From an uncultured Ruminococcus sp. (lineage in GTDB: Bacteria; Bacillota; Clostridia; Oscillospirales; Acutalibacteraceae): a stretch of 33,991 nt of DNA. A program made the position numbers and the translations under genes. This document shows positions 3,479-33,991 of this stretch, in pieces; within the stretch, counting starts at the first letter, position 1; each line of letters starts with the position of its first letter. The stretch is taken from the NCBI GenBank assembly GCA_902797065.1, contig CADBRK010000085.1:1-33991 (forward strand), in the 5' to 3' direction. The notes beneath the pieces were generated by a model, which worked only from the letters and a program-made list of their open reading frames with translations, did not search any database and was not told the DNA's origin.

Positions 3479-3537
3479 GATGATGTTATCTATATATTTC
3501 AATAACACTTATTATCAGTAAGACGGAGGATTTATTT

Positions 3538-3819
3538 ATGAATAAGAGCGAATTGATCTCTGTAGTTGCAGAGAAGAACGACATTACCAAGAAGGACGCA
3601 GAGAAGATCGTAACGATGGTTTTCGATACTATCGTAGACGCAGTTAAAGAAGGAGAGAAGGTTTCTATCGTAGGTTTCGGTACATTCGAGCAGAAGATCC
3701 GCAAGGAGAGAACAGGTGTTGACCCGAGATCACACGAGTCGATCACAATTCCCGAGGCAAAAGTTCCGTCATTCAAGGCAGGCAAGGCTTTCAAGGAGAT
3801 CGTTGACGGCAAAGAGTAA
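3538..3819 (+). CDS. hup: HU family DNA-binding protein.
   Basis: The 93-aa product reads MNKSELI...GFGTFE...R.GR/VDP...I.IP....P.FKAGK.FK, a typical HU sequence. GGAGGA RBS is present. Confidence 0.95.
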   Translation: MNKSELISVVAEKNDITKKDAEKIVTMVFDTIVDAVKEGEKVSIVGFGTFEQKIRKERTGVDPRSHESITIPEAKVPSFKAGKAFKEIVDGKE

Positions 3820-19350: not shown

Positions 19351-22032
19351 TTATTTATCTGCAAGTCTGAGAACATCTTCGTATACTCTCTTACAGCTGT
19401 CCTCGTCAAAGAACGGATAGAATTCTTCGATCCTTTTGATGTACTTATCGCTGTTTTTGCAGTCGTTCTCGATGTATTTGCACACGGCATTTACCGTGCT
19501 TTCGAGATCGCGGCATACAGGACCGAATCCGTTGTCGTCGTAGCTGAAATAACCCTCGGAATAAGAGTGACCTTTGAAGAACGCTTCTTTATCGAACTGC
19601 GAGTATACAACAGGCTTTTTCAGATAGCCGAAGTCAAAGAATACGCTGGAATAGTCGGTGACGAGAAGCGCGCTTTCGGCAAACTGAGTCTGATAATCAA
19701 CATATCCGTGGTTTACCTTGAAAACATCGTTCTCGGTAAAGTCAACGTACTGCTCCGTGAACAGCGGATGCAGGCAGAATAGACCTTCATAGCCGTTCTT
19801 CTTCATGCATTCAACAAGCTTGGGGTTGTTGATAAGTCCGTTATAGAATTTAAAGAAATCGCTTTCCTTAAACTTATCGTAGTACACGCTGGTATCTGTT
19901 TTGGGATCAACGCACTTGTAGAGAGATTTTCTCCATGTCGGAATGATAAGTATCTTCTTCTTGACATTCTTGCTCATTCTTGTGAGATTATCAAATCTCG
20001 GGAATCCCGTAAGCCTTACCTCTTCTTCGGTATAGAAGTATTCCCCGTCAATAATCGATCTGTACTCGGGCTTACCTGCCGTAACGAAAAGCTTTATGTT
20101 CTTGTTTGTCTTGTTGAGCCAGCCTGAGATGTCGTCTTTTGTTATTCCGTGCTGAAGGAACACAAAGTTGAAGTTGAACAGATCGGACATACAGAGTCTG
20201 TCGCCGCCGTAGGGGTTAAGAACGTATTCGCTTGCCTGAGACGAAATGACGTTTTCGCTCTGGAGAGTCATAAGTCTGAACTTTGCGGTACCGAAATCTA
20301 TGATCTTGCCGATTTTTGACATTCTCTCATAGTCCTCGCTGTCCTTCTGAAGAACAAAGTACGGCTTGATGCCCCTGTGCTTTATACTCTGAACATATTT
20401 GAAGAAGTGCTCGCCGTTATCGCCTGCTTTGTTGGGTCTGTCAGAGATAAGCCATACGTGCTTGTTGAACGGACGCATCAGGAAGTAGAGCAGACGGTGT
20501 TTTATCAGATAGCCTCGCTTTATTCTCCTGAGATGAGACCAGTACTGAAGCTCGTACTTCAAATGCCTTCTCTTTTTATAAGGAATAACTTTAAGCGTTT
20601 TACCGACTCTTTTCAGGATATAATCGCCCGTGCAGTAGTATCCGAAATCTTTGCCGAGCGTCGGGATATGGGCAAATTTACCCATTTCAACATATATCCT
20701 GGTAATGTAGGTATCCTTATATTTCAGGAAGAATTCAATGCTGTCTTCTCTGCCTTTTTTTACGGGTATCGCAAACTTAAAGCCCTTGCCGTCAAAAGCT
20801 TTAAGCCCCATGATCGGCGTGTCGTACTTTTCGGTGAGGTACAGCTCGGGTGTGTACTCTTTTCCGTTTACCGTCGCATAGAAAGAATAATCCGCACGAT
20901 CAAGGAAGAGATTGTCTTTTCCTTCGATGTACAGCACGTCGTCCTGAATTTCCATAAAAGTGAAAATGAGCAGCGATCTCACTTCGAGAAGATTCATCAC
21001 GATAATATTATTGAAGAACAGCTTTCCGTGATCGTATTCAAGTTCTTTGGTAATATCTCTCCGGTATTTAATGCCGAGAGCATATACCTTCGCTCCGACA
21101 CCCATATTCTTCTGAGTGAGAATGATCCTGTCGTCAATTTCGAGAAGTAGACTGTTAATGATGCTTTTGTACTGCTCCAATTTCTCGTTGGTAAGCATAC
21201 CTTTCAGGTCTTTGCCGAGTCTCCAACGCAGATCATACATTACGATGTACTGAATGAACTCGAGAACACGGCCGTAACGCTTTTTGGACTGTTCGATAAG
21301 ATCCTTATGGAAATACTTCGGCGAATCGAAATAATAGCTGTCGGATTTCAGCTCGTTCTGGAGAGCCGAGCTTTCGTCGCTTCTTTTTCTGTAAAGGTGA
21401 ACAGCCTCGCGGATAACGCCGAGTTTGCACTTGTCGAGAATGATCGAGTTGATAAACTGAGAGTCCTCGCCGTATTTAAGATTAGTCGAGAATCTGATGT
21501 CACCGATAGCCGAGGCTTTTATAAATGCGCCTGTAACGTCCATCTGGATCATTTCGTAGTAGGTGAGGAGATCAACGACTCTGGTGCTGCTGAATTTATA
21601 GTCAAGGTAGTGATAGCCCGTTGTTGCATCAAAAAACTGTTTTCTTGCACCTACAACGTCTATCTGATCCTGGTTTTCTTCAAAGAAATCATATACGAGC
21701 TTAAACGCGTCCTTCTTCCAGCAGTCGTCGGAGTCAAGGAAGTTTACGTATTTTCCCTCGATGTATTTTATGCCGTTATTCCTTGCGGAGCTTACGCCGC
21801 CGTTTTCCTGAAGAACATATACGATATTATCGGGGTACTTGCTCTGATATTTCTTGCATATCTCTTCGCTGTTGTCGGGGCTTCCGTCGTTGACAAATAT
21901 TATCTGAATATTCTCCTTGAATCCGATTGTCTGAGCGATTACAGAATCTACGGTTTCTTTCAGATATTTCTCTACATTGTAAACCGGTATAACTACCGAA
22001 AACTTGAATTTGTAATCGTTTTTGTTTGACAT
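19351..22032 (-). CDS. Bifunctional family-2 glycosyltransferase (N-terminal) and CDP-glycerol glycerophosphotransferase (TagF-like, C-terminal).
   Basis: N-terminus: FSVVIPVYNVEKYL...VNDGSPDNS (GT2). C-terminus: FLQHGI and IIPTWR motifs of the TagF/TagB family. The product is 893 aa. Confidence 0.88.
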   Translation of the reverse strand: MSNKNDYKFKFSVVIPVYNVEKYLKETVDSVIAQTIGFKENIQIIFVNDGSPDNSEEICKKYQSKYPDNIVYVLQENGGVSSARNNGIKYIEGKYVNFLDSDDCWKKDAFKLVYDFFEENQDQIDVVGARKQFFDATTGYHYLDYKFSSTRVVDLLTYYEMIQMDVTGAFIKASAIGDIRFSTNLKYGEDSQFINSIILDKCKLGVIREAVHLYRKRSDESSALQNELKSDSYYFDSPKYFHKDLIEQSKKRYGRVLEFIQYIVMYDLRWRLGKDLKGMLTNEKLEQYKSIINSLLLEIDDRIILTQKNMGVGAKVYALGIKYRRDITKELEYDHGKLFFNNIIVMNLLEVRSLLIFTFMEIQDDVLYIEGKDNLFLDRADYSFYATVNGKEYTPELYLTEKYDTPIMGLKAFDGKGFKFAIPVKKGREDSIEFFLKYKDTYITRIYVEMGKFAHIPTLGKDFGYYCTGDYILKRVGKTLKVIPYKKRRHLKYELQYWSHLRRIKRGYLIKHRLLYFLMRPFNKHVWLISDRPNKAGDNGEHFFKYVQSIKHRGIKPYFVLQKDSEDYERMSKIGKIIDFGTAKFRLMTLQSENVISSQASEYVLNPYGGDRLCMSDLFNFNFVFLQHGITKDDISGWLNKTNKNIKLFVTAGKPEYRSIIDGEYFYTEEEVRLTGFPRFDNLTRMSKNVKKKILIIPTWRKSLYKCVDPKTDTSVYYDKFKESDFFKFYNGLINNPKLVECMKKNGYEGLFCLHPLFTEQYVDFTENDVFKVNHGYVDYQTQFAESALLVTDYSSVFFDFGYLKKPVVYSQFDKEAFFKGHSYSEGYFSYDDNGFGPVCRDLESTVNAVCKYIENDCKNSDKYIKRIEEFYPFFDEDSCKRVYEDVLRLADK

Positions 22033-22047
22033 GCGATACTCCTTTTA

Positions 22048-23058
22048 TTACTTTTCAAAGCTTGATTTATCGGGAAGAAGTTTTGTAAACGAATCTATTA
22101 CCTGCTGTTTTTGTTTTTCAAAGTCGGATGTGTTTATCGTATCATTAACGCAGATCTGCTTATATCTGCCTTTCTCTATTGATCTGAGCAGCTCGTCAAA
22201 GAGGGAATCTGTGATGTGGAAACATCTTCCGCCCTTTGTGCTTTTCGGGATCGGAATTCCTTCCGCAAGCTGCCAGTATTTTATAAGCCACTGATTGCAG
22301 TTGTTCTTTGTGCGGAACTTATCGCTGCATGTTTCGTCAAGAACATCTCCTTCAATATCCCAGACCGTTTCGTAGGTACTTTTCAAAAAGTTGCTCGGAA
22401 GATGATTGTAGTACATTCCCGGGAACCACGGCCACATACTCAGGGCGATGGTCTTGATATTTCTCTTTATACCGTTTGCGGGGGTGTACCATTTGAAGAA
22501 ATGCTTTTTCATGACCTGCGTGCGTACAAAATGTGTGTTGATAAGCTCGATGTCGTTGCCGTTGAAGAAACCTGCGCTCTTTTTCCTGAAAAAGATGCAG
22601 TCTAAAGCGTATGTATCGCGGGGACGTCCGTCCTTGAAAAAGTCTTCGGGCTTAACGGGTGCGGTTATGAACATATCGTCGTTGAAATACACAAACTGCT
22701 CGGCAAGCCCTTCGATCCTGTGGAGATTCAGCTCAATGGTATTTGCGTTGAAGGTAGGCAGATATTTCTCGGGTATATAGTCTTTGTGATTAACAACATT
22801 AAGCTTCGGGTTGTCCGTATTCAGCCACGGGGGAAGATGTCCCCATGTGACGAAGTGGATCTTGTTTACCCACGGCGCAAACTTCTCGACACCTCTGAAC
22901 CAGAACTGGAGATTATCCCAGCTTCTGTATCGTATCTCGGTGCTGTCACCCGTTTTATTCGATTTGTCGTATAAATTCTTTTCTTTCTGCCACTCGGGAT
23001 CGTTTCCGTCGACCCAGATAATAACAAAATCAATTTTATCCAAGATCTTCACCACCAT
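22048..23058 (-). CDS. Stealth-family capsular polysaccharide (hexose-1-phosphate) phosphotransferase.
   Basis: Stealth CR1 is IDFVIIWVDGNDPEW. CR2 is EIRYRS...APWVNKIHFVTWGHLPPWLN...VVNHKDY...LPTFN. CR3 is FVYFNDDMF. Confidence 0.85.
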   Translation of the reverse strand: MVVKILDKIDFVIIWVDGNDPEWQKEKNLYDKSNKTGDSTEIRYRSWDNLQFWFRGVEKFAPWVNKIHFVTWGHLPPWLNTDNPKLNVVNHKDYIPEKYLPTFNANTIELNLHRIEGLAEQFVYFNDDMFITAPVKPEDFFKDGRPRDTYALDCIFFRKKSAGFFNGNDIELINTHFVRTQVMKKHFFKWYTPANGIKRNIKTIALSMWPWFPGMYYNHLPSNFLKSTYETVWDIEGDVLDETCSDKFRTKNNCNQWLIKYWQLAEGIPIPKSTKGGRCFHITDSLFDELLRSIEKGRYKQICVNDTINTSDFEKQKQQVIDSFTKLLPDKSSFEK

Positions 23059-23154
23059 TGTTAAAAACCGGACGGTATGAAAACGACTGCTTTAATTGAA
23101 GAAAAACCGCATCACACATAACCGCCCGTTTTAAATCTATTGCGTACTTTGTTC

Positions 23155-23183
23155 ATTATATCATATTTGATGATTGTGTACAA
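23155..23183 (-). promoter_or_regulatory. Sigma-A-type promoter on the minus strand for the Stealth / GT2-TagF genes.
   Basis: On the minus strand: TTGTAC (23183-23178), a 17-nt spacer ending in TGa, then TATAAT (23160-23155). Confidence 0.5.
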
Positions 23184-23285
23184 TTAGCAAATACTACAAG
23201 AAATTTTAGAAATATTGCTCAATTATCATTTTTTCCTTATATGATTCGACAAAATCATGATGAAAATACTGTGCGGAAACACAAA

Positions 23286-24359
23286 TTATACAGCTTTTTT
23301 TCGACATGCGCCGAGCTTATTTTTGTACAGCGAACAGAGCTTTTCTATGGGTATATGTATGACTGCGGCGGCAGGTATCGAAATAACAAGCACCGACAGC
23401 GTAAATACAGGTTCATCTGTATTCAGAATGCTTATTTTTTGGACGATCTCTATTATCAGACCGTGGAGCAGGTACAGTTCAAGCGAGAATACGCCGATCT
23501 TGTTCATCAGAGTGTTTCCGGAAAAATCAACCTTCATGCATATAAGAGGTATAAACACCGCCATCGCAAACGAAAAAAAGAGCGTGATAAAATAGTTTAT
23601 ACCGCTGCCCCTTTTCGTGGATGCCTTCGCCGCATATAAAGCCGCTATCAGCGCAAGGTTTATAATCAGCGGCAGTGTGTAATGCTTTTTGAGAGCTTTC
23701 AGGATTTTCTTTTCACAGACAGACAGTACGACGCCCGCCCAGAAGCAGGGAGCTGTGTTGTACCACCACATGCCGTAGTGCAATCTCCGGCACATCAGCA
23801 TATATATAATAACTCCGGTCAGATTGCCGATCATAAACAGTACGGTCTTATTCTTTGTGAAAAACAGCTTCGCATTTATGTAGTACACGATATACAGATA
23901 GATGATCGCAAGGATATACCACGAGTTCTTTACGATCGGATCGCCGTTATAAAGCGAGATCAGCGCTTTTTGTATCGTGCAGCCGTTTGCGAAATGCTCG
24001 TACAGATAATATATCACAAAGAAAATGACATAAGGAATAACGATCACACCGAGACGCTTGGGGATAAACCCTTTCAGGTATGCTTCACGCTTCGTTTTGA
24101 GCTGCACGGTGAGTCCGTACCCCGATATGATAAAAAAGCCCGCTGTGCCGAGAACACCGAAATGGTACAGCCTGTCAAATAAAAACCCGCCTTCGGTTAT
24201 GTTTGAAATATGGTGAAGAACAACTACAACGGCAAATATTCCCCTTAATGCCCTGCACTGTCCGGGCGAAAAATAGTCGTCTGCGAATTGCTTGCCCGGC
24301 TTTTTTATTTTGAGGCGGTACAATACAGTCATTATAAATAACGCTATGAATATATCCAT
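23286..24359 (-). CDS. Acyltransferase family 3 (membrane O-acyltransferase, OatA/WecH-like).
   Basis: The 357-aa product has about 10 TM segments and the LRGIFAVVVVLHHI motif typical of the acyltransferase_3 family. Confidence 0.85.
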   Translation of the reverse strand: MDIFIALFIMTVLYRLKIKKPGKQFADDYFSPGQCRALRGIFAVVVVLHHISNITEGGFLFDRLYHFGVLGTAGFFIISGYGLTVQLKTKREAYLKGFIPKRLGVIVIPYVIFFVIYYLYEHFANGCTIQKALISLYNGDPIVKNSWYILAIIYLYIVYYINAKLFFTKNKTVLFMIGNLTGVIIYMLMCRRLHYGMWWYNTAPCFWAGVVLSVCEKKILKALKKHYTLPLIINLALIAALYAAKASTKRGSGINYFITLFFSFAMAVFIPLICMKVDFSGNTLMNKIGVFSLELYLLHGLIIEIVQKISILNTDEPVFTLSVLVISIPAAAVIHIPIEKLCSLYKNKLGACRKKAV

Positions 24360-24471
24360 TTCTCTGTTATCCCCTTAAAATCGGCTTGATGTGATTTTTT
24401 CGATCATATTATGCTATGCGTTACTACGCAGGAATTCGGGTATTCGCAAAAAATGTTCCGTACGCTGCCGC

Positions 24472-24510
24472 ATAAAAATAAAGCGGAACAACTCTCCGTG
24501 TGTTCCGCTT
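24472..24510 (-). terminator. Strong intrinsic terminator, minus-strand specific.
   Basis: Perfect 10-bp stem AAGCGGAACA / TGTTCCGCTT (24481-24490 and 24501-24510) with a 10-nt loop. On the minus strand it is followed by TATTTTTAT. Confidence 0.8.
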
Positions 24511-24536
24511 TGAGTAATTATTATTACCCTCAAACT
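24472..24536 (-). ncRNA. Predicted roughly 64-nt transcript, either a small RNA or a terminated leader of the acyltransferase gene.
   Basis: It is bounded by the consensus promoter (24543-24571) and the terminator (24472-24510). It contains a 5' hairpin UUUGA-GG-GUAAU aaua AUUAC-UCAAA and has no ATG. Confidence 0.45.
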
Positions 24537-24542
24537 ATACCT

Positions 24543-24571
24543 ATTATACAACTCACAGACATTGTTGTCAA
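24543..24571 (-). promoter_or_regulatory. Perfect-consensus sigma-A promoter on the minus strand.
   Basis: The reverse complement reads TTGACA (24571-24566), a 17-nt spacer acaatgtctgtgagttg, then TATAAT (24548-24543). Confidence 0.7.
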
Positions 24572-24630
24572 TAATCCGACATTAAAATTTTTCTAAAATG
24601 TGAATTAATAATTAAGAATATAAAAAATCA

Positions 24631-24659
24631 TAGACATATCCATCACAATAGGATATAAT
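24631..24659 (+). promoter_or_regulatory. Sigma-A-type promoter for the macrodomain gene.
   Basis: TAGACA (24631-24636), 17-nt spacer, TATAAT (24654-24659). An AAGGGGG RBS precedes the ATG at 24684. Confidence 0.6.
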
Positions 24660-24683
24660 ATATAAGAAAAGGGGGCGGATCGG

Positions 24684-25499
24684 ATGACGCAGGATCAGAG
24701 GAGAGTTTATCTGATAAAAGAATTGCTTGCGGAAAAGAAAAACGCAAAGATAGTGAGGATTCCCACAAGCGCCGTTCAGCAAAAAAACCTGCTCAGAACG
24801 CTTATGAACGAGAGAGAGCCTGCTCCGATAAGCGATGAGTTTTTGAAAATACAGGACGAATACCTGAAATACGCCATAGCGCAGAAGGGTATCACGCATA
24901 TAAACGATCTTGAACCGATCGAAAAGGAGATGTATCTCTGGCAGGGCGATATTACCACGCTTGACTGCGACGCCGTCGTCAATGCCGCCAACTCGGAGAT
25001 GCTCGGCTGCTTTCAGCCGCTTCATAACTGCATAGATAACTGCATACATACATATTCGGGCGTACAGCTCAGAAATTACTGCGACGAGATGATGAAAGAG
25101 CAGGGTCACGAAGAACCGTCGGGACAGGCAAAAATTACGCCTGCATTCAATCTTCCCGCAAAGTACATAATACATACGGTGGGTCCGAGAATAAACGGCT
25201 TTGTGCGCGAGAAGCATAAAAAAACGCTCGAATCGTGCTATAACAAGTGCCTTGAGACAGCAGAGAAAAACGGCTGCCTCAGCATAGCGTTCTGCTGTAT
25301 CTCTACGGGTGTGTTCGGGTTTCCTCAGTATGACGCCGCAAAGATAGCCTTAAAAACAGTGTCGTCATATAAAAAGAAGCATAAAAGCAGTATCAAGGTC
25401 ATATTCAATGTGTTCAAGTACGAAGACCTGATGATATACGAAGAATTATTTGAAGAAAAGAAATTGCTGGAGCATATTGTCGAGCTTGCCGAACAGTAA
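24684..25499 (+). CDS. Macrodomain protein-ADP-ribose hydrolase (Firmicute roughly 270-aa type with an N-terminal helical extension).
   Basis: LWQGDITTLDCDAVVNAANS.MLGCF and ISTGVFGFP macro-domain motifs are present. Confidence 0.85.
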   Translation: MTQDQRRVYLIKELLAEKKNAKIVRIPTSAVQQKNLLRTLMNEREPAPISDEFLKIQDEYLKYAIAQKGITHINDLEPIEKEMYLWQGDITTLDCDAVVNAANSEMLGCFQPLHNCIDNCIHTYSGVQLRNYCDEMMKEQGHEEPSGQAKITPAFNLPAKYIIHTVGPRINGFVREKHKKTLESCYNKCLETAEKNGCLSIAFCCISTGVFGFPQYDAAKIALKTVSSYKKKHKSSIKVIFNVFKYEDLMIYEELFEEKKLLEHIVELAEQ

Positions 25500-25544
25500 T
25501 ATCGTTACTTACAAAACTGTAATCATTAATGACGTTATTAGTGG

Positions 25545-25574
25545 TTGTAATCAATGCCCGGTATGTGATATAAT
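25545..25574 (+). promoter_or_regulatory. Extended -10 sigma-A-type promoter for the PASTA pseudokinase gene.
   Basis: TTGTAA (25545-25550), an 18-nt spacer, then TGaTATAAT (25566-25574). Confidence 0.55.
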
Positions 25575-25642
25575 TCATTAGAATAGAGTAATTTTGTTTT
25601 TTGGAAAAGAATTATCATTATAAAGTTTTATGGAGTGATTAG

Positions 25643-27328
25643 ATGTCAAAGATTTGTTACGGATGCTTCAGACCACTCGATGACGAAAGTTCAAAGTGTC
25701 CGCGCTGCGGTTTTGACGCAGCCACAAAACAGAATATGCCGTTCCTGCCGCTCGGCGCAGAGCTTCAGAAGGGCAGATATACTATTGGCAAAAAGATTCT
25801 CAGCAGCAACGAGAGTACAAGATATATCGCATACGACAACAGTATGGACGCCGTTGTAAATATCAGAGAGTTTCTTCCCAACGGATTGTGCGCAAGGAAG
25901 AAGGAGAGCAACAAGATCGTTCTTAATGCCGAGAAAGCCGCTGCGTACAAGCGTTTGCTCAGCAAGTATCTCGATTATAACAGAACGCTTGCAAGGCTGA
26001 AGGATTGTTCTGCTGTTATCAGGGTGTCCGATATTTTTGTCGAGAACAACACAGCGTACGTTGTAGAGGAGAGAGAGTCGCTTCTTCCCTTTGCGGATTA
26101 TATCAAAAAGTGCGGCGATCATATAAGCTGGGAGACCGCAAGATCGCTGTTTATGCCGCTTCTCTCCACTCTTGAGAAAATGCACAAAAACGGCATTTCT
26201 CACTACGGAGTAGGCCCCGGAAATCTCAAGATCAATTCGGAAGGACAGTTAAAGCTGCAGAATTTCTCGATCTCCGATATGAGAAAAAAGGGCACCGATC
26301 TCAAACCTATGCTTATTTCGGGCTGTTCCGCACCCGAACAGTATGACGATTATTCCGTGCTTGACGAAAGCACAGAGATATACGGCTTCACCGCAACGCT
26401 TTTCTATGCGCTTACGGGCAGCGTTCCCGAAGATGTGGAAAAGCGCCGCAAGGATAACAGACTGCTTATCAGCACGGCTATCAACAAGAATCTGCCGTCT
26501 TATGTGCGTCAGGCTTTGTCGAGCGGTTTACAGTTCGATCAGGAGAAAAGACTTGCCACATTTGCGGATCTCAGGGCGGAGCTTTCTGCCGCGCCTACCG
26601 CAAAGGCGATCAAAGAAGAGATGTCTCAGCCCGATATGGACGACGATGACGACGATATGCCCTCAAAAAAGAGGAAGAAAAAGTCCAGCAGCAGTATCTA
26701 CGGCGTTATCTCCTGCATAGTTTCTCTTGTAATATTCGTTATTATCGGTACGCTGTGGCTGCAGGAAAATCCGTTCGCAAAAATGTTTGAACCCGAGAAC
26801 GTAAGCTCCGACAGCGAAGTCGAGGCAACGGGCGAGGTGGTTACCGTGCCCAACCTTGTAGGAGTAAAATACGAGATCGCAGTCGAAGAAGCAGGCAAGA
26901 CTTCCGACTATCAGCTGCTTAAAGCTGTCGAGGAGGAGTTCAGCGACGACGTTCCCGAAGGATATATCGCGTCGCAGTTCCCCGAGGCTTATTCCGACGA
27001 GATACAGGGTTATTCACTCTATATCACGGTAAGCAAGGGCGCAAAGCAGAGAGAATTGCCGAAGATCGAGGGCAAAACTGTAGATCAGGTAGCGCAGCTC
27101 CTCGGAGACGAAAGCTTTGTTACAACTCAGATATACGAGTACAGCGAAACGATTAAAAAAGGTCTTGTTATAGGTTATGACGCGCACGTGCCGGGCGATA
27201 AGCTTGAGTACGGTTCGTCTTTGGTAATAAAAGTAAGTAAGGGCGCAGAACCCAAGGCAACGGATACCGAGAGAAGAACGTCGGATTCGGACGCCGTGAG
27301 CAGCGCCGACGAAAACCCCGAAGAGTAA
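25643..27328 (+). CDS. Membrane protein with an N-terminal zinc ribbon, a degenerate Hanks-type kinase-like domain (predicted pseudokinase), one TM helix and two extracellular PASTA domains.
   Basis: CYGC...CPRC zinc ribbon. The kinase fold is recognisable (APE and LTG..P retained) but the catalytic motifs are replaced; see findings. The TM helix is IYGVISCIVSLVIFVIIGTLWL. PASTA repeats read VPNLVG...ITVSKG and LPKIEGKTVDQV...VIKVSKG. Confidence 0.8.
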   Translation: MSKICYGCFRPLDDESSKCPRCGFDAATKQNMPFLPLGAELQKGRYTIGKKILSSNESTRYIAYDNSMDAVVNIREFLPNGLCARKKESNKIVLNAEKAAAYKRLLSKYLDYNRTLARLKDCSAVIRVSDIFVENNTAYVVEERESLLPFADYIKKCGDHISWETARSLFMPLLSTLEKMHKNGISHYGVGPGNLKINSEGQLKLQNFSISDMRKKGTDLKPMLISGCSAPEQYDDYSVLDESTEIYGFTATLFYALTGSVPEDVEKRRKDNRLLISTAINKNLPSYVRQALSSGLQFDQEKRLATFADLRAELSAAPTAKAIKEEMSQPDMDDDDDDMPSKKRKKKSSSSIYGVISCIVSLVIFVIIGTLWLQENPFAKMFEPENVSSDSEVEATGEVVTVPNLVGVKYEIAVEEAGKTSDYQLLKAVEEEFSDDVPEGYIASQFPEAYSDEIQGYSLYITVSKGAKQRELPKIEGKTVDQVAQLLGDESFVTTQIYEYSETIKKGLVIGYDAHVPGDKLEYGSSLVIKVSKGAEPKATDTERRTSDSDAVSSADENPEE

Positions 27329-27333
27329 AAATC

Positions 27334-27392
27334 AAAAAGGAGTTCTGATCTGAGTTACAATAGGAATTAAGCTTGATCGGAACTCCGTTTTT
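27334..27392. terminator. Bidirectional intrinsic terminator between convergent genes.
   Basis: Stem GGAGTTCTGATC (27339-27350) / GATCGGAACTCC (27375-27386) with one G-U pair. It is flanked by AAAAA upstream and TTTTT downstream. Confidence 0.7.
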
Positions 27393-27394
27393 GT

Positions 27395-28096
27395 CTATTT
27401 CATCATTCTTTTTTCGGTACTCTGTATCAGCGTGAACAGTGATTCCGACATTGCGGAGTATTGTTCCTCTATTGTCTCCGGGGACATCTCAACTTGCTTC
27501 GTGCGGTCAAGGCTGCGGTATTCGGAGATCGGCAGACCGTGAGTTATGCTTTCGGTATTGCTTTCGGTTATTGACTGCATCGCATGTACACGCCCTTTAT
27601 AAGTATGTTCGGGGACAGAGAAGATACCCTTCGGGTTTTTCGGGTTAGACGAATATATCGTCCTGAACATGGTGTATACCGAACCGAAGAGATATGACGA
27701 GCATTCGTGTATAAGCCCGATGTTATCAAGGCGGTCGATCTGATCGAACAGTATCGTGAGCGAGTGGAACACGGTACGCTTGTTGAAATTCACAATGGGG
27801 CTTATTTTGCTGCTGCCCGTGTATGTGTCCTCTGTTATGAGATCGTCTTCGTTATAATTGTTTGCGCCTGCGTTTGCAGTACGGCTGACGCTCCTGCCAA
27901 GCAGATAGTCGCATGTCACGCCGTAATAATCGGCAGCTTTTACAACAAAATCAAGACTGCATTCACGTATGCCCTTCTCATAGTGAGACAGCAGCGGCTG
28001 AGATATACCTAAGTCGGACGCCGCACGCTTCTGGCTGAGCCCCTTTTCTTCACGGAGAAGCGTTATTATTCTCGGAAAATCCTTGTTCAATCCCAA
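27395..28096 (-). CDS. XRE-family helix-turn-helix transcriptional regulator with a C-terminal domain of about 160 aa of unknown function.
   Basis: LREEKGLSQKRAASDLGISQPLLSHYEKG HTH motif. TTG start. Confidence 0.8.
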   Translation of the reverse strand: MGLNKDFPRIITLLREEKGLSQKRAASDLGISQPLLSHYEKGIRECSLDFVVKAADYYGVTCDYLLGRSVSRTANAGANNYNEDDLITEDTYTGSSKISPIVNFNKRTVFHSLTILFDQIDRLDNIGLIHECSSYLFGSVYTMFRTIYSSNPKNPKGIFSVPEHTYKGRVHAMQSITESNTESITHGLPISEYRSLDRTKQVEMSPETIEEQYSAMSESLFTLIQSTEKRMMK

Positions 28097-28172
28097 ACAC
28101 CCTTTCTATATTTAAATATACTATCAGTATAATTGAATTATTACAATTTGTAAAGAGAAAAGAGAAATAAAT

Positions 28173-28865
28173 ATGAAATCATACCGGATACATTTTATCA
28201 GGCACGGCGCGTGCGAAGAATCACGCAGGGGAGTGTACGTCGGCACAAAAGACGTTCCACTCAGCGAAGAGGGTATCCGTGAACTCAAAGAGCTTGACGA
28301 AGCTTTTGACTATCCCGGAACGCCCGTTGTCTTTACAAGCCCGCTGAAAAGATGTACGCAGACCTGCAATATACTCTATCCCGCTATTCCGCCGATAGTT
28401 ATAAACGAGCTGTGCGAGTGCAGCTTCGGCGAGTGGGAGGGCAGGACTGCAGATAGTCTCAGCGCAAACGAGGACTTCAAAAAATGGCTTGCGGGCGACA
28501 CATCTGTCAAACCGCCGAAGGGCGAGAGCGGAGCGGAGTTTACACGCAGAGTATGCAATATTTTTCAGAAGATCGTTGACGGTCTGATCTCAACGGGTAA
28601 TACCAATGCCGTAATAGTTACTCACGGCGGCGTTATCATGACGCTGCTGTCCGTGTACGGTCTGCCGCAGGCAAAGCCGTTCGACTGGGTGTGCGACGAC
28701 GGCTGCGGATATTCGATGAGGATCACGCCGTCTCTCTGGATGCGTGACAGAGTCGGAGAAGTGTACGCGAAGCTGCCGTACCCCAAACGCGATGACGAGT
28801 ACGAAGACGACAGCTTCAAAAGAGAATTTTTTGGCGACGACACGGTATTATTTGATGATGTCTGA
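28173..28865 (+). CDS. Histidine phosphatase superfamily protein (phosphoglycerate mutase / CobC-like).
   Basis: N-terminal RHG motif (IHFIRHGA) and the downstream VTHGGVI histidine. Confidence 0.8.
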   Translation: MKSYRIHFIRHGACEESRRGVYVGTKDVPLSEEGIRELKELDEAFDYPGTPVVFTSPLKRCTQTCNILYPAIPPIVINELCECSFGEWEGRTADSLSANEDFKKWLAGDTSVKPPKGESGAEFTRRVCNIFQKIVDGLISTGNTNAVIVTHGGVIMTLLSVYGLPQAKPFDWVCDDGCGYSMRITPSLWMRDRVGEVYAKLPYPKRDDEYEDDSFKREFFGDDTVLFDDV

Positions 28866-28901: not shown

Positions 28902-30479
28902 ATGAACAAAAAGACCGTAAGCATATTATTGGCACTGCTTACAACTGCGTCGGCTGTATTGGCAGGCTGCGGAGGAACACCCCCGGGAATTGCTCCGCCG
29001 AGAGACCCGAGCCTTTATTCTACGGCGGCTTCGTCCGAAAGCACAACGAAGGATTCGACAAGCACTGCGGCTTCGTCCGAGAGTACATCGAAGGAAACAG
29101 AAAGTTCGACAAGCTCCGCCGATTCGTCATCAGCGTCCGAGCCGGAGGAGAAGAAGCCTTTTGACGGTTCGTATCAGAAGAACGACGACGGCACTATCGC
29201 CATGAACTACGGCGCAATACTGCACGCATGGTCATGGAGCTTTGAAACGATCACCGAACATCTTGACGACATAAAAGAAGCAGGCTATACTTCGATCCAG
29301 ACGTCGCCGATCAACCTCTGCAAAGTCGGCGAAAAAGCCGGAATGTGCCTTTACAGCGACGACGATAAGGGCAAGTGGTACTATCACTATCAGCCTACCG
29401 ATTATACGATCGGCAATTATCAGCTCGGTTCAAAGGATAAGTTCAAGACTCTCTGCGAAGAGGCTGAGAAGAGAGGGCTTAAGATCATCGTTGACGTACC
29501 GCTTAATCACGTTTCGAGCGACCGTTCGGTTGTTTCGCGAAATATTCTCGATCTGTGCGAAAAGCCTTTCCACGACAGAGGCGAGATCGGCAGCACATCG
29601 AGCCGCAAGCAGGTTACGCAGAACGATCTTCTCGGACTTGCCGACCTCAATACGCAGGATCCCGCCATTCAGCAGTATGAGCTGAATTACCTTAAAGAAG
29701 TAATCGAAACAGGCGCGTCGGGTTTCAGATTTGACGCCGCTAAGCATATCGAACTGCCCGACGACGACCCCGAGTATGCGTCCGATTTCTGGACTGTCGT
29801 TCTCGATAACGGCGCAGAGTTCCAGTACGGCGAGATACTCCAGGGCGAGTGCGACAGAATAGCCGATTATTCAAAGATCATGGGCGTTACGGCATCGGCG
29901 TACGGCAAGAATATCAGAACAGCAGCCGCAGGCAACATGAGCGTTTCGGTAATAGAATCTTATTCCGCAAAGGACGTTGACCCGTCCGTCATGGTAACAT
30001 GGGTAGAGTCTCACGACAATTACTGCAACGACGGCACATGGGAGACTCTCGAGGAATCCGACGTTGAGTTCGGCTGGGCTGTCATCGCCGCAAGAAGCGG
30101 CGGCGCACCGCTGTTCTTCAGCAGACCCGACGGAAGCTCTCTTGACAGCCAGTGGGGCAAGAATGTAATAGGCAACGTCGGTTCGGACGGCTACAAGAGT
30201 CCCAACGTATCTGCGCTCAACCACTTCCGCAACGAGATGGCAGGGCTTGACGAAACACTCTCAAATCTCGATTCGGATAAGAAGGTACTTATGATAGAGA
30301 GAGGTGACAAGGGCGCAGTTATCATCAACAAAAGCTCGGGCGAGTTCAAGATCGACGGAGCTGCGACAGTCCTTGCAGACGGTACTTACAAGGATAAGGT
30401 CACGGGCGCTGAATTTACCGCTGCGGGCGGCAAGCTGAGCGGTACTGTTCCGCAGGACGGAATTATTGTAATATATTGA
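28902..30479 (+). CDS. GH13 alpha-amylase, AmyE-like lipoprotein.
   Basis: Lipobox LAGC. ILHAWSWSF...AGYTSIQTSPIN, VDVPLNH, GFRFDAAKH, YGEIL and WVESHDN correspond to GH13 conserved regions I-IV. Confidence 0.9.
   Translation: MNKKTVSILLALLTTASAVLAGCGGTPPGIAPPRDPSLYSTAASSESTTKDSTSTAASSESTSKETESSTSSADSSSASEPEEKKPFDGSYQKNDDGTIAMNYGAILHAWSWSFETITEHLDDIKEAGYTSIQTSPINLCKVGEKAGMCLYSDDDKGKWYYHYQPTDYTIGNYQLGSKDKFKTLCEEAEKRGLKIIVDVPLNHVSSDRSVVSRNILDLCEKPFHDRGEIGSTSSRKQVTQNDLLGLADLNTQDPAIQQYELNYLKEVIETGASGFRFDAAKHIELPDDDPEYASDFWTVVLDNGAEFQYGEILQGECDRIADYSKIMGVTASAYGKNIRTAAAGNMSVSVIESYSAKDVDPSVMVTWVESHDNYCNDGTWETLEESDVEFGWAVIAARSGGAPLFFSRPDGSSLDSQWGKNVIGNVGSDGYKSPNVSALNHFRNEMAGLDETLSNLDSDKKVLMIERGDKGAVIINKSSGEFKIDGAATVLADGTYKDKVTGAEFTAAGGKLSGTVPQDGIIVIY
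29025..29114 (+). repeat. Imperfect tandem duplication (39 nt and 48 nt) encoding the Ser/Thr-rich linker (AASSEST.K..) of the amylase.
   Basis: GCGGCTTCGTCCGA.AG.ACA.CGAAGGA...GACAAGC occurs twice (29025-29063 and 29067-29114). Confidence 0.7.
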
Positions 30480-30489
30480 TTGTATGATT

Positions 30490-30523
30490 AAGGACGCAGA
30501 ATTCTTTGCGTCCTTATTTTTTT
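30490..30523 (+). terminator. Rho-independent terminator.
   Basis: Stem AAGGACGCA (30490-30498) / TGCGTCCTT (30507-30515) followed by ATTTTTTT. Confidence 0.85.
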
Positions 30524-30608
30524 AAGTCAATTTAAAGTGCGTTTTTAAGTTTTTTTAAAGGAATGTAATGTAAAATAAATACAGAGAGAAAAAGAGAGGG
30601 TGATACAC

Positions 30609-31205
30609 TTGAAAATACTGTTTGCCGTATCGGACAGAGATCTCCTGCATTCATACAGCAGGCTGCTCGAACTTGACGGCGCAGACGTATGCACATCGTT
30701 TGACGGTACACAAACGATAACGCTCATAGAGTCGCATAAGTTTGACGTTGCAGTGATCGGCGAAAGCTTACCGAGAGTCGAAAACAGCCGTATCCTCGGT
30801 ATGCTGTACGGCAAGGGCGTTCCGACGATCGTCATATCGGGCAAACGTGTGACGTCAAAAATGCTGTGCGGTTCTCAGATAGCTTGTTCATATCTTCCCG
30901 TACCGTTCCTGCCCGAAGAGATGAGATCGCTCATAAAAACGCTGCTTGAGAAAAAGCAGTCGGGCAAGGTGTTCAGGACAGGCGAAGTCAGCATAGATAC
31001 AAGCTGCTTTTCGATGGAGGGCGTCCGTGTAACAAACGAGGAGATAGATGTTCTCAGGGCAGTTTGCGAAGATACGCCGATAAATGTGAGATCGGAGAGC
31101 GTGTATATCAGCGCGCTTAACAGCAAGCTCGGCAGCCTTAACAAGCATTCAAGGATAAAATATATATTGGGAAAGGGCTATAGGTTGGTGAATAATAATG
31201 GATAA
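30609..31205 (+). CDS. OmpR/PhoB-type response regulator homolog with a degenerate receiver domain (no phospho-acceptor Asp).
   Basis: TTG 30609 lies 8 nt after GAGAGGG and gives MKILFAVSDRD. The position of the acceptor Asp reads FDVAVIGESLP. The conserved Lys position reads YLPVPF. The C-terminal winged-helix segment reads GKGYRLV. Confidence 0.8.
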   Translation: MKILFAVSDRDLLHSYSRLLELDGADVCTSFDGTQTITLIESHKFDVAVIGESLPRVENSRILGMLYGKGVPTIVISGKRVTSKMLCGSQIACSYLPVPFLPEEMRSLIKTLLEKKQSGKVFRTGEVSIDTSCFSMEGVRVTNEEIDVLRAVCEDTPINVRSESVYISALNSKLGSLNKHSRIKYILGKGYRLVNNNG

Positions 31206-32475
31206 AGTCAGAAGAAAAATCGTGTTGTATTCGCTGGCGTCGATATTTGTTCTGCTTACGGTCATGCTTACCGTTATAAACGGACTCAATTTCACAATGG
31301 CGGCGGACGACGCAGACAAGATCACGCAGATACTTGCGGAGAGACACGGAACATTCGAGGGCGAGGACAATAAGAACAAACCTCCCGAACATTCCGATCA
31401 GGACAATAAAACCGAAACTAACGATGAAGCCGCACGAGGTTCGGCGGCTGCGCCGAAGGGTATGGGACCTATGGGTCCGCAGTCTCCCGAGATGAATAAA
31501 TCGGTAAGATATTTTACGTACAGATTCGACGAAAAGGGCAGAGCGAAGAATATCGCTTACAATTTATCGGCTGTCGATCAGTACGACGGGGCTGTCTGGG
31601 CAAGGAAACTTCTGGAGGAGAACAGCGTAAACTCCACGGGCTGGACAAACGGAACATACCGCTACAGAATATATAAGATCAAAGACAAAACGTACGTTAC
31701 GGTCATAGATCAGGGGCGCGAGCTTTCGCCGTCTTACAGAATACTCATAATCTCGGTATGCGGAGAACTGATAGGTTTGCTCGTAAGCTTCTTCATACTG
31801 GAGCTTATCAGCAAAAAACTTGTTCGTCCGCTCGAGGACGCAGACCGCAAGCAAAGGCAGTTTATCGCAAATGTCGAGAACGAATTCAAGCTTCCGCTGA
31901 CGATAATCAATGCCGATACCGAGATAATCGAAAAGGAGAGCGGCTGCACCGATTACACAAGCTCGATAAACAGGCAGGTTCGCAAAATGACGTCTCTCGT
32001 CAAAGACCTCAGAGCGTTGTCTGTCATTGATTACGACCAAAAGAACGCAGAGGAGATAGACCTCTCGGAGATCGCAGCGGCGGTCATCGACGGCAGCAAA
32101 ACGAAGTTCGACGAGAAGAAGATTGACCTTTGCATGGATATAGAGGATAATATCACCGTTCACGGCGACGAGGACAGAATACGCAGAGTTCTGAGGGAGC
32201 TTGTGAATAACTCGCTGATGTTCGCAAAGACAAAAGCTAAGTTCACACTTCTGCGTGATAACGAAAGAATAAAGCTGATTCAGACAAACGATACCGATCT
32301 TCCTTCCGGTTCGCTCGATATAGTGTTCGACAGGTTTGTTACTCTCGATAATGCCGACACTCTCGACACCGCAGGGCTGGGGCTTTCGTTCGTGAAGGAC
32401 GCCGTAAGATCAATGGACGGCAGAGTAAAAGCAGAGGTAACAAGCGGAGAATTTATTCTCACGATCGCTTTGTAA
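31198..32475 (+). CDS. Sensor histidine-kinase homolog lacking the phospho-acceptor His and with a degenerate G1 box.
   Basis: Two TM helices flank a loop of about 130 aa. The H-box reads FIANVENEFKLPLT (N in place of H). The N-box LVNNSLMFA and G2 box AGLGLSFV are retained. It overlaps the regulator gene by 8 nt. Confidence 0.8.
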   Translation: MDKVRRKIVLYSLASIFVLLTVMLTVINGLNFTMAADDADKITQILAERHGTFEGEDNKNKPPEHSDQDNKTETNDEAARGSAAAPKGMGPMGPQSPEMNKSVRYFTYRFDEKGRAKNIAYNLSAVDQYDGAVWARKLLEENSVNSTGWTNGTYRYRIYKIKDKTYVTVIDQGRELSPSYRILIISVCGELIGLLVSFFILELISKKLVRPLEDADRKQRQFIANVENEFKLPLTIINADTEIIEKESGCTDYTSSINRQVRKMTSLVKDLRALSVIDYDQKNAEEIDLSEIAAAVIDGSKTKFDEKKIDLCMDIEDNITVHGDEDRIRRVLRELVNNSLMFAKTKAKFTLLRDNERIKLIQTNDTDLPSGSLDIVFDRFVTLDNADTLDTAGLGLSFVKDAVRSMDGRVKAEVTSGEFILTIAL

Positions 32476-32489
32476 CGGGGGGTGACGTC

Positions 32490-33203
32490 ATGGCAGAAGT
32501 TCAGAAGCCGATCGTAGTAATGAAGCGCTACGAGATGAAATATATCCTTACGGCGGAACAGACGGAGTATTTCAAAGAGGCTGTGAAGGGTCATATGGAG
32601 ATCGACAAGTTCGGTCTTACGTCAATAGCCTCACTCTATTACGATACGCCCGATTACCGCCTGATACGCACGTCCATAGAGAAGCCGAAGTTCAAAGAAA
32701 AGATCAGGCTTCGTTCTTACGGACTTGCTACCGAGAGTTCGCCCGTATTCCTGGAGCTTAAACGCAAGGCTTACGGTATAGTTTACAAACGCAGAGTACA
32801 GTCCACGATACCGCTTGTGAATAAGTTCTTTGACGGCGAGGGCGACATCTGCGCGGGCGGACAGATAAACAGCGAGATAACTTATTTCCGTGATTATTAC
32901 AAAGAGCTTGCGCCCGCATGTCTGATTATATATGACAGGGTGGCATATTTTCAGCCCGACGGCGATCTCAGACTCACCATCGACCACAACCCGAGATACA
33001 GAGCGGACGAGCTGAATCTCACTCATTCAATGGACGGGATTTCGCTTCTGCCCGAGGGCAGCACGATACTCGAAGTCAAGGTTCAGCAGGCAGTGCCGAT
33101 ATGGCTGGCGACGATACTCTCCGAGGGGAAGATATATAAAGGCAGCTTTTCAAAGTACGGCACGGCGTACAAAATGCAAATGGAAAAAATAAGAAATATT
33201 TGA
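32490..33203 (+). CDS. VTC-domain protein (polyphosphate polymerase-type triphosphate-tunnel / CYTH-like domain).
   Basis: N-terminal KRYEMKYIL, SLYYDTPDY, KIRLRSYG, LELKRK and VYKRR basic tunnel strands are typical of bacterial VTC (PF09359-type) proteins. The product is 237 aa. Confidence 0.8.
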   Translation: MAEVQKPIVVMKRYEMKYILTAEQTEYFKEAVKGHMEIDKFGLTSIASLYYDTPDYRLIRTSIEKPKFKEKIRLRSYGLATESSPVFLELKRKAYGIVYKRRVQSTIPLVNKFFDGEGDICAGGQINSEITYFRDYYKELAPACLIIYDRVAYFQPDGDLRLTIDHNPRYRADELNLTHSMDGISLLPEGSTILEVKVQQAVPIWLATILSEGKIYKGSFSKYGTAYKMQMEKIRNI

Positions 33204-33220: not shown

Positions 33221-33892
33221 ATGTTTGATTCGATTTATACAACAACGGTGACTGCGCCGCAGTTCTTTATAATGGCGGGCGCTGCCCTGATCTCGGGCTT
33301 TATCTATGCATGGCTGATGTCGTTCAGAGTGCGTTCGGCAAAAAGGTTCTTTACGGTGGCTGCGGTGCTGCCGTTCATGATAGCTGCGGTAATTACATTT
33401 GTCAACGGCAATATAGGCGCAGGCGTTGCTATCGGCGGCGCATTCAGCCTGATACGTTTCAGGAGTGCACAGGGCAGCTCCGACGAGCTTGTGACGATAC
33501 TCATCGCTATGGGTTCGGGCATAGCCTTCGGTATGGGCTACATAGGCTACGGCATTGTAATACTCCTCGGAATGGCGGCAATATACTTCATACTTTCGCT
33601 TATACCCGTATTCGAGCATAAGAGTATGTCTATGGATAAGCTGCTCAGAGTGACTATCCCCGAATCGCTTGAATATACGGACGTGTTCGACGATACATTT
33701 GCGCACTTCCTCTCAAGCTATGAGAACGTCGGCGTAAAAACAACAGGCATGGGCTCAATGTTCAGACTCTCGTTCAAGATACGCATGAAAGACCCTTCCG
33801 AAGAGAAGCGCTTCATTGACGAGCTGAGACTTAAAAACGGCAATCTCGAGATCTCTATCCTGCCGTACACCGAGCCGCAGAATCAGCTGTAA
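33221..33892 (+). CDS. DUF4956-family membrane protein, the usual genomic partner of bacterial VTC-domain proteins.
   Basis: ATG 33221 lies 8 nt after AGGAG. The motif VNGNIGAGVAIGGAFSLIRFRSA...GMGYIGYG matches my recollection of DUF4956. Confidence 0.75.
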   Translation: MFDSIYTTTVTAPQFFIMAGAALISGFIYAWLMSFRVRSAKRFFTVAAVLPFMIAAVITFVNGNIGAGVAIGGAFSLIRFRSAQGSSDELVTILIAMGSGIAFGMGYIGYGIVILLGMAAIYFILSLIPVFEHKSMSMDKLLRVTIPESLEYTDVFDDTFAHFLSSYENVGVKTTGMGSMFRLSFKIRMKDPSEEKRFIDELRLKNGNLEISILPYTEPQNQL

Positions 33893-33991
33893 TACGGAAA
33901 GATAGGCTCAACCCCAAAAATCGTTGAAACTTGAAAACAGGGATAAAAAGGTGTATTCTAATAACGGTGATGAAAATGTCGATAACAGTAG

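Follow-up and report, generated by a model that had tools for sequence, protein, structure and literature searches.

A predicted phosphotransfer-dead derivative of an OmpR-type/VanS-like two-component system at the head of a VTC-DUF4956 operon

The pair of genes and its operon

This work concerns two overlapping genes on contig CADBRK010000085.1 of an uncultured Ruminococcus sp. (the 33,991-nucleotide stretch that was analysed is called the window), which encode a response regulator-like and a histidine kinase-like protein and are followed at close distance by genes for a VTC-domain protein and a DUF4956 membrane protein (Table 1). The original prediction, made from the letters of the DNA, described the two as a two-component pair in which both partners had lost their phosphotransfer residues. 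The window matches contig JBGUWP010000102.1 of GCA_045221315.1. The regulator-like reading frame could open at 30600 or 30609; the TTG start at 30609, from which the N-terminus reads MKILFAV..., is backed by homologues and by the public gene call. The predicted 8-nt overlap of the two genes was found as described and is kept in 35 of 44 related loci. The VTC-domain protein is annotated elsewhere as a polyphosphate polymerase domain. Its membership of the VTC family was taken from Pfam alone, because sequence searches of the PDB gave nothing useful: the VTC-domain protein returned spurious WD40 matches and Vtc2 at E 0.72, and the DUF4956 protein returned no match.

To place the pair in context, we surveyed 52 species-level genome loci, nearly all from rumen metagenome-assembled genomes of Clostridia (Ruminococcus, Oscillospiraceae, Acutalibacteraceae, Lachnospiraceae and one Erysipelotrichaceae). 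The VTC gene lay directly 3ʹ of the kinase-like gene in all 50 loci that extended far enough, with a median gap of 15 nt across related loci, and the DUF4956 gene was present in 46 of the 47 loci with sequence available. In the exception (L023:2071-3677) the VTC gene has no DUF4956 gene next to it and is followed by an open reading frame at 3018-3677; gene loss or an assembly join is possible there. Identity to the window was highest for VTC (67-93%) and DUF4956 (65-90%, with two loci at 41-43%), followed by the kinase-like (36-71%) and the regulator-like protein (28-60%). A Cthe_2159 gene was found in about 30 loci, directly 3ʹ of DUF4956 or directly 5ʹ of the regulator-like gene, and the wider neighbourhood of the cassette varied between loci.

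Gene order, overlap and spacing thus show a pair that is, on this evidence, translationally coupled and an integral part, at the head, of the predicted VTC-DUF4956 operon. The terminator of the upstream alpha-amylase gene is the 5ʹ boundary of the transcription unit, and no long-stem terminator-like site was found when one was sought within the four-gene cassette. The idea of a free-standing signalling pair therefore did not hold, since the pair heads this operon, whose promoter (see below) resembles a site targeted by a canonical paralogous regulator.

Table 1. Coordinates of the genes, residues and regulatory elements in the window.
Feature	Position	Strand	Basis
Pseudo-response regulator, 198 aa, TTG start; receiver fold and shortened winged-helix domain	30609..31205	+	
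Codon GGC, Gly51, at the phospho-acceptor Asp position	30759..30761	+	PrrA/MtrA/PhoP and PhoB/OmpR alignments
Codon GTA, Val98, at the conserved Lys position (K-P-F to V-P-F)	30900..30902	+	alignments
8-nt overlap ATGGATAA, regulator-like stop and kinase-like start	31198..31205	+	
Pseudo-histidine kinase, 425 aa	31198..32475	+	
Codon AAC, Asn228, at the H-box phospho-acceptor His position	31879..31881	+	HK853 alignment
G1-box region T363-N-D-T-D-L-P369; first Gly is Thr	32284..32304	+	
VTC-domain protein, 14 nt 3ʹ of the kinase-like gene	32490..33203	+	Pfam PF09359, E 7.5e-40
DUF4956 membrane protein	33221..33892	+	Pfam PF16316, gene call
Four direct repeats TTTAAG/TTAAAG, 11-12 bp period, starting at 30521, 30532, 30544 and 30555	30521..30560	+	
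-10-like hexamer TAAAAT (inferred promoter element)	30571..30576	+	read from sequence
Intrinsic terminator of the upstream alpha-amylase gene	30489..30526 (strong terminator at 30489-30516)	+	12-bp stem with T-run
5ʹ part of the 1334-aa Cthe_2159 beta-helix gene, cut by the window end	33949..33991	+	gene call in L001

Residues, folds and conservation of the two proteins

The regulator-like protein (residues numbered along the 198-aa form) was examined by pairwise HMMER alignment against the solved regulators PrrA, MtrA and PhoP, and a MAFFT alignment with PhoB and OmpR agreed. The segment DVAVIGESLP lies opposite DAIVLDINMP of the solved regulators, which puts Gly51 at the acceptor Asp; YLPVPF lies opposite YLVKPF, with Val98 at the conserved Lys; and FAVSD lies opposite VVDDD, so that the acidic pair reads Val7/Ser8, followed by DRD. 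All three changes had been predicted originally and were confirmed here. The Thr/Ser position at the end of beta4 is kept (Ser77). A pseudo-receiver has been defined as a recognisable receiver that lacks one or more of the DD, D, T and K residues (PMC12632262), and the regulator-like protein is one by this definition.

Pfam profiles recognised the protein poorly. Response_reg scored 19.9 bits, below its cut-off of 30.2, and Trans_reg_C scored 13.6 bits (cut-off 26.2, E 0.074) over profile positions 36-77 only; among 68 full-length relatives, none had a precomputed PF00486 match. The AlphaFold model, built with 75 sequences, reached a pLDDT of 94.6 and a pTM of 0.90. Behind the receiver, it contains a sheet of four strands, two helices and a hairpin, an arrangement that corresponds to a winged-helix domain without alpha2, and the alignment with PhoB and OmpR has a gap of about 17 residues where this helix would be. 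The best full-length Foldseek matches of the model were PrrA (TM 0.71), RitR (5vfa, 0.67) and MtrA (0.62), all of them compact "closed" OmpR-family structures, and receiver-domain matches had a root-mean-square deviation of 1.7-2.5. According to the model, the (beta-alpha)5 receiver fold and the OmpR-type fold that had been proposed are supported; the winged helix seems to be incomplete, with alpha2 missing and Trans_reg_C below threshold.

To see which of the substitutions are common to the family, we searched with a profile made from a 33-sequence alignment of related loci (a single-sequence query had given 7 relatives). The search yielded 100 family clusters, separated by a clear score gap from ordinary OmpR-type regulators: 68 of about 198 aa, and 32 of 109-136 aa that consist of the receiver only, the winged helix being absent. 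The Lys column read Y48 L32 F11 M4 H3 V1 I1 and never Lys, and the second acidic column read P70 S18 A5 Q4, with an acidic residue once, so 99 of 100 clusters lack it. The beta4 position was Thr in 59 clusters and Ser in 12. The acceptor column, however, read D59 S18 N12 E7 G3 R1, with Asp in 30 of the 32 short and 29 of the 68 long forms, and the window protein is among the few with Gly. Loss of the acceptor Asp was thus rejected as a family trait, and the expectation that orthologues share the substitutions stood for the His of the kinase-like partner (lost in 119 of 120, see below) and for the Lys (lost in 100 of 100) but not for this Asp. By these counts, the hallmark of the regulator family is the loss of the Lys and of the metal-binding Asp, the acceptor Asp being merely free to vary.

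In the C-terminal domain of the regulator-like protein, the wing is still present together with part of the recognition helix (VYISALNxKL, compared with VEVYISFIRKKL in canonical relatives). Since the winged helix is truncated, and absent in the 32 short forms, a DNA-binding output is doubtful, and DNA binding as the core output of the pseudo-regulator is unlikely.

Substitutions in the kinase-like protein were read from its alignment to HK853, in which FIANISHELRTPLT lies opposite FIANVENEFKLPLT and Asn228 takes the place of His260, as predicted. At E <1e-10, 522 clusters of homologues were obtained from 5.8 billion proteins, and the residue counts given here refer to the best 120 of them, which are full length and 43-100% identical. 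The His column of these 120 read S36 N27 K22 Q14 R11 A7 I1 T1 H1, so that 119 lack the His, while the flanking E227 is present in 118. The case of an acceptor His at a shifted position, raised in the original prediction, was checked: residues 66-321 contain no His and no DHp column has a His in more than 9 of the 120 homologues, which excludes a shifted acceptor. The phosphatase motif E/D-x-x-T/N is incomplete, with Glu229 kept and Leu232 (M/L/V/I in the family) at the position of HK853 Thr264.

The N-box and G2 box, on the other hand, are retained, again as predicted: LVNNSLMFA lies opposite LLNNGVKYS of HK853, with Asn338 conserved, and TAGLGLSF lies opposite GTGLGLAI, with GLGL at 393-396. 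The N-box Lys/Arg is replaced by Met341 in the window copy. Residues invariant or nearly so in the 120 homologues are F222, P233-L-T, N338, F377-D-R-F380, N385, G393-L-G-L396 and R409; N338 as well as G393, L394 and L396 were found in 120 of 120.

Unlike the regulator profiles, those for the kinase scored above threshold (HisKA 28.1 bits, cut-off 26.9; HATPase_c 43.3 bits, cut-off 26.4), so the proposed profile check succeeded for one partner and failed for the other. NCBIfam gave weak, non-specific matches far below all cut-offs (PnpS, CreC, PhoR, BaeS, WalK), and consequently no named orthologue group applies. The AlphaFold model (pLDDT 84.6) has a long DHp hairpin and a CA domain. In its predicted layout, a first transmembrane helix is followed by a disordered acidic and Pro-rich linker (about 50-98), an alpha/beta extracytoplasmic domain (99-171), a second transmembrane helix that runs straight into DHp, and CA. 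The low-complexity acidic and Pro-rich loop noted earlier is therefore real and predicted to be disordered; it is extracytoplasmic rather than periplasmic, because the host is a Gram-positive relative of Clostridium. Foldseek matched the CA domain and core to CpxA, HK853 and DivL (4q20); with the full model it returned kinase cores only and no fold match for the extracytoplasmic domain. The sensor, transmembrane, DHp and CA regions are all conserved across the family. The transmembrane helices are conserved to the same degree as DHp (mean consensus fraction 0.71 and 0.70, compared with 0.73), and Asn28, Phe32 and Asp40 are invariant in the region of the first one (31198-31340); these residues may make contacts within the membrane, for example with DUF4956.

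The G1 box had been taken as a further sign of degeneration, which did not survive comparison. The best solved match of the CA domain alone was VanS of VanA-type enterococci (8dvq, E 6e-9), whose FKNTGSIP aligns without gaps to QTNDTDLP of the window protein. VanSA and VanSC have Asn instead of the G1 Asp, lack the second Gly and are real kinases with millimolar affinity for ATP (PMC10017428). The G1 boxes of His-containing relatives are equally odd (CDNDAEGI, CRNDAKNI, VTNDGEEIP), and Asn364 is present in 119 of the 120 kinase-like homologues; by its alignment with VanS, it is likely to be the residue that contacts adenine. A destroyed G1 box with lost ATP binding was accordingly rejected as an explanation, the odd box being, as far as the alignments go, a trait of the whole lineage and no evidence of degeneration. 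What sets the His-less forms apart is a Thr instead of Gly/Ala two residues after Asn364. Judged from these residues, loss of ATP binding by the pseudo-kinase is possible, and the invariance of the pocket suggests that some ligand would still be bound.

The same residues bear on whether the pair could still phosphorylate. The CA domain might bind ATP and modify a non-His residue or another protein, or the pseudo-regulators that keep the Asp might be phosphorylated by a canonical kinase or small donors. The invariance of N338, N364, G393-L396 and R409, the occurrence of the same G1 form in active VanS and in His-containing relatives, and the acceptor Asp kept in 59 of 100 regulator-like clusters would agree with such an activity. 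However, there is no conserved alternative acceptor, with S, N, K, Q, R or A in the His column and no His-rich column in DHp; the Lys and metal-binding Asp needed for receiver phosphorylation are gone in essentially all members; and the window copy has, in addition, neither the acceptor Asp nor the N-box Lys/Arg. We consider residual phosphorylation very improbable. The alignments show a pair that, on the residues present, cannot be expected to carry out His-Asp transfer.

Loss of key catalytic residues from both proteins could also mean that the genes form a decaying pseudogene pair with no function. Intact, full-length reading frames are nevertheless found in more than 50 species-level genomes and in hundreds of clusters, and the ratio of nonsynonymous to synonymous substitution rates (dN/dS, Nei-Gojobori) against the two closest loci lay at 0.10-0.20 (regulator-like gene), about 0.10 (kinase-like gene) and 0.02-0.06 (VTC and DUF4956), values that are rough upper bounds as dS was saturated. 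Taken together with the invariant motifs and the conserved overlap, these low ratios refute decay, a reading to which we attach practically no weight. The claim of a selected state rather than random decay was thus upheld by the full-length homologues, the conserved losses and dN/dS of about 0.1-0.2, and the comparisons show a predicted phosphotransfer-dead state kept by purifying selection. A pseudo-histidine kinase has been described as a histidine kinase homologue that lacks a core function and is retained by selection (PMC12632262); the kinase-like protein is one in this sense (definition of Collins and Childers, as cited in PMC12632262).

Origin, promoter repeats and surroundings

A profile search of 1.84 billion representatives arranged the kinase-like proteins in a series. 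At the top stand about 37 representatives without the His, whose H-box reads AExEFKxPLT. The next tier holds His-containing proteins together with His-less ones whose H-box is otherwise canonical (DASRELKNP, DASFELKNP, DASYELKTP, SASNELKTP); the latter include P0262, P0270, P0278, P0281, P0287, P0290, P0291 and others. Below about 330 bits, every H-box that could be read by pattern was the canonical F[IV][TS]DA[SG]HELKTPLTII.

Genomic context was read for four proteins of the series, P0278, P0291, P0279 and P0295. Beside P0278 (His to Arg) and P0291 (His to Phe), at loci L087 and L088, the VTC gene is directly next. P0279 (L089, 7331-12879) is a canonical kinase with a canonical 228-aa regulator, followed after a 464-nt gap by VTC-DUF4956-Cthe_2159, and P0295 (L091, 5240-10737) is a His-containing kinase 14 nt from VTC, whose 196-aa regulator has Glu at the acceptor Asp and Gly at the second acidic residue. 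By their gene content and residues, L089 and L091 look like evolutionary intermediates, and the window family is the most diverged form of a series that starts from a canonical pair beside VTC genes. The same sensor-domain motifs and the DHp helix PLT[VI]I[NS]AN[TN]E occur in canonical as well as His-less kinases, which indicates that the pair derives from a canonical system already associated with VTC-DUF4956-Cthe_2159. On sequence grounds, the pair is thus a selected, phosphotransfer-dead derivative of an OmpR-type/VanS-like system that ancestrally stood beside these genes.

The repeats upstream of the operon are arranged like an OmpR/PhoB-type operator and coincide in part with the -35 region. 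A scan with the sigma-70 consensus over 30524-30608 called no promoter, and the promoter was therefore inferred from the repeats and the -10-like hexamer; the repeats of L007 are also followed by aatgtaaaat, and those of other loci by TATAAT-like hexamers. In the window, TTWAAG-N5-TTWAAG has 2 matches, both at 30521-30560, compared with 0.05 expected. In 1.22 Mb of related loci it has 23 matches, 19 of which lie on the coding strand 64-114 nt upstream of the regulator-like start. At L016 the adjacent canonical regulator and the pseudo operon each have the same repeat pair, followed by TATAAT, in front of them, and at L089 VTC is preceded by four TTTTAAG-like repeats. In a second subclade the pattern is TTCAAT-N5-TTCAAT, with 24 matches in 1.15 Mb that are all on the coding strand. 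They stand about 55 nt 5ʹ of the canonical regulator and, once more, in front of the Cthe_2159 gene at the head of the pseudo cassette. Loci of this type are L022:1808-3860, L059:1556-3640 and eight further ones.

Three observations bear on which protein reads the repeats. They are retained in loci where the regulator-like gene is receiver-only (L005, L036, L022); the pseudo-regulator helix YIsALNxKL is identical in the TTTAAG-type and TTCAAT-type subclades; and the canonical recognition helices differ between them (VEVYISFIRKKL and VEVYMSFARKKL). A canonical paralogue is the simplest reader under these conditions, and judging from the helices and sites, it is probably a canonical paralogous response regulator that reads the repeats.

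Alternatively, and in keeping with the original prediction, the pair could be a self-contained transcription switch that is independent of phosphorylation, in which the pseudo-regulator would autoregulate the operon by binding to the TTWAAG repeats, and the pseudo-kinase would bind or release it according to the signal. The layout is the classic one, with regulator and kinase upstream of their target genes and four direct repeats of 11-bp period at the promoter; conservation extends to the wing and part of the recognition helix; and the AlphaFold model resembles closed PrrA, MtrA and RitR, which open to bind DNA. Nevertheless, a third of the family has no DNA-binding domain while the three loci named above still have their repeats, alpha2 is missing with Trans_reg_C below threshold, and the unchanged helix of the pseudo-regulator does not follow the change from TTTAAG-type to TTCAAT-type loci. 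Such a switch is therefore an unlikely explanation.

The repeats, together with the distribution of canonical systems, also raise the question of feedback. A canonical regulator and kinase of the same lineage adjoin the cassette in about a quarter of the loci (L016, L021, L022, L027, L041, L043, L045, L048, L050, L053, L055 and L059), and most loci have no canonical system within 6-10 kb of it. The pair could serve as a feedback or decoy module for its parent canonical system, which would induce the operon. On the kinase side, the pseudo-kinase would titrate the signal, form mixed dimers with the canonical kinase or sequester the canonical regulator; on the regulator side, the pseudo-regulator would compete at the kinase or at the direct repeats and, having no alpha2-alpha3 activation loop, would be an anti-activator. 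The adjoining systems, the identical direct repeats before both operons, the part of the lineage's recognition helix kept in the pseudo-regulator and the DHp alpha1 helix, which past the His position has hardly diverged from the canonical paralogues, are all consistent with this proposal. On the other side, the invariant partner is VTC-DUF4956, most loci have no canonical system close by, and receiver-only forms cannot compete on DNA. Feedback on a parent system is thus conceivable but, on balance, less than likely.

At its 3ʹ end the window breaks off in the Cthe_2159 gene. The 1334-aa product matches Pfam Cthe_2159 (9e-57), Flg_new (Listeria-Bacteroides repeat) and Dockerin_1 (type I dockerin); it continues at L001:12752-16756 and has long Thr/Asp-rich linkers. 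Two dockerin-bearing alpha-amylases come next on the contig, which together with the Cthe_2159/dockerin protein suggests an amylosome-type starch degrader. At the other end, the cassette is preceded by a reading frame at 28902-30479 with a lipoprotein-type signal peptide, an alpha-amylase catalytic domain and a Ser/Thr-rich linker, and then by a strong terminator. Further upstream, on the minus strand (19351-28865), lie a large glycosyltransferase/Glyphos_transf gene and a Stealth-family gene, and the same region encodes an acyltransferase, a Macro-domain protein, a PASTA Ser/Thr kinase (25643-27328), an HTH regulator and a His_Phos_1 phosphatase. In other loci, no gene of this 19351-28865 region is kept beside the cassette.

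Proposed function and known systems

The reading that we favour, with a probability of roughly 0.45, is that the pair is a phosphorylation-independent, signal-responsive regulatory module of the VTC/DUF4956 machinery that acts by binding. Transcription of the operon would be driven from the four repeats of 11-bp period, probably read by a canonical paralogous response regulator. The pseudo-kinase would sense an extracytoplasmic cue with the sensor domain that it has in common with its canonical relatives, and would relay it by conformational change and binding, via the pseudo-receiver, to the membrane machinery of VTC and DUF4956, a putative polyphosphate-type polymerase with a membrane partner. 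The pair would thereby work as a post-translational regulatory subunit with no phosphorelay. We favour this reading because VTC-DUF4956 is the sole invariant association, the packing of the genes is like that of a complex, and the DNA-binding domain is degenerate and dispensable. As in the original prediction, we infer that the pair acts through protein-protein interaction.

Several points weigh against the regulatory module. Contact of the pair with VTC or DUF4956 is deduced solely from gene linkage and tight spacing, and the biochemical activity of bacterial VTC/DUF4956 proteins is not established in the literature that we found. The wing and part of the recognition helix are kept in the pseudo-regulator, so DNA binding is possible. 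The DHp helix past the His position (PLTVINANTE) is almost as in the canonical paralogues, which fits an interaction with a canonical regulator equally well. Finally, no canonical paralogue was found in the 34-kb window and the 10 kb beyond it (44 kb).

A bolder version would have a whole two-component system turned into non-phosphorylating subunits. Here the sensor of the pseudo-kinase would gate the VTC-type polyphosphate polymerase and DUF4956 via the pseudo-receiver, the ATP pocket, with its Mg/phosphate elements kept and its adenine site weakened, may read a phosphate chain or the ATP level, and the canonical sister system would control transcription of the operon. We put this version forward tentatively, as a possibility that falls short of the regulatory module in probability.

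Among known proteins, DivL of Caulobacter crescentus is similar to the pseudo-kinase in that its HisKA/HATPase_c fold lacks the phospho-acceptor His, which is Tyr in DivL, and we take as a further likeness that DivL signals by binding the receiver DivK, without phosphotransfer. However, DivK is normal and phosphorylated, whereas the partner in the window is itself catalytically dead; and DivL is a cytoplasmic, multi-PAS protein essential for the cell cycle, whereas the window protein is a membrane sensor with two transmembrane helices that is tied to a VTC/DUF4956 operon. VanS is comparable in its HisKA class, its two transmembrane helices and a G1 box of equal length with Asn at the Asp position. 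It differs in having the His and autophosphorylating; in the window protein the His is replaced by Asn228, the phosphatase Thr/Asn position is hydrophobic, and Thr stands for the first Gly of G1 and Met for the N-box Lys.

On the regulator side, RitR, ChxR, HP1043/HsrA, GlnR and CmrT have OmpR-family architecture with receiver active-site residues missing, and their action does not depend on phosphorylation. Among 20 atypical regulators that have been characterised, 18 are orphans, and the partners, where present, are real kinases (PMC12632262); CmrT of the Clostridioides difficile CmrRST system is one of the few encoded with a kinase. Unlike these atypical OmpR/PhoB regulators, the window pseudo-receiver is translationally coupled to a His-less kinase homologue and has a winged helix without alpha2, a domain that a third of the family dispenses with. 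According to a review from 2025, 0.9% of HisKA domains lack the His and the mechanisms of atypical regulators remain a mystery (PMC12632262).

The closest relatives are the canonical paralogues (L089, L016, L022, L045). They have the sensor motifs GPxSPE, RYFT, GW[ST]KTxYRY and TYVTVID.SREL.PSYR, the DHp docking helix, the neighbouring genes and the promoter repeats in common with the pair, but keep the His, Asp, Lys, acidic pair and full Trans_reg_C, and the gap to VTC at L089 is 464 nt compared with about 15 nt in the pseudo cassette. The same uncharacterised VTC and DUF4956 pair is also found in Gram-positive pel loci (cotH-VTC("PPP")-DUF4956-DUF4832) and in NELoc-2 of C. perfringens; these are described without a pseudo two-component pair, and have CotH, DUF4832 or a sigma factor as partners. 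Altered Pel levels and reduced aggregation were seen in Streptococcus intermedius mutants of the DUF4956-like gene SIR_1592 and the CotH gene SIR_1594.

Our literature searches returned no conserved cognate pair in which both partners are dead, and no link of such proteins to VTC/DUF4956. Pseudo-histidine kinases and pseudo-receivers are known kinds, while a dead cognate pair tied to VTC/DUF4956 is undescribed in the literature found. Both kinds are common in bacteria, with mechanisms that are largely unknown. The combination met here is rare: a cognate pair with both partners dead, a path from a canonical ancestor that can be reconstructed through intermediates, a canonical sister system with a shared operator in some genomes, and fixed candidate targets in VTC, DUF4956 and Cthe_2159. 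It makes the function of a two-component system after the loss of phosphotransfer directly testable, and it opens a first route to the regulation of the VTC/DUF4956 module of bacteria, which is uncharacterised and has been linked to Pel-dependent aggregation in streptococci.

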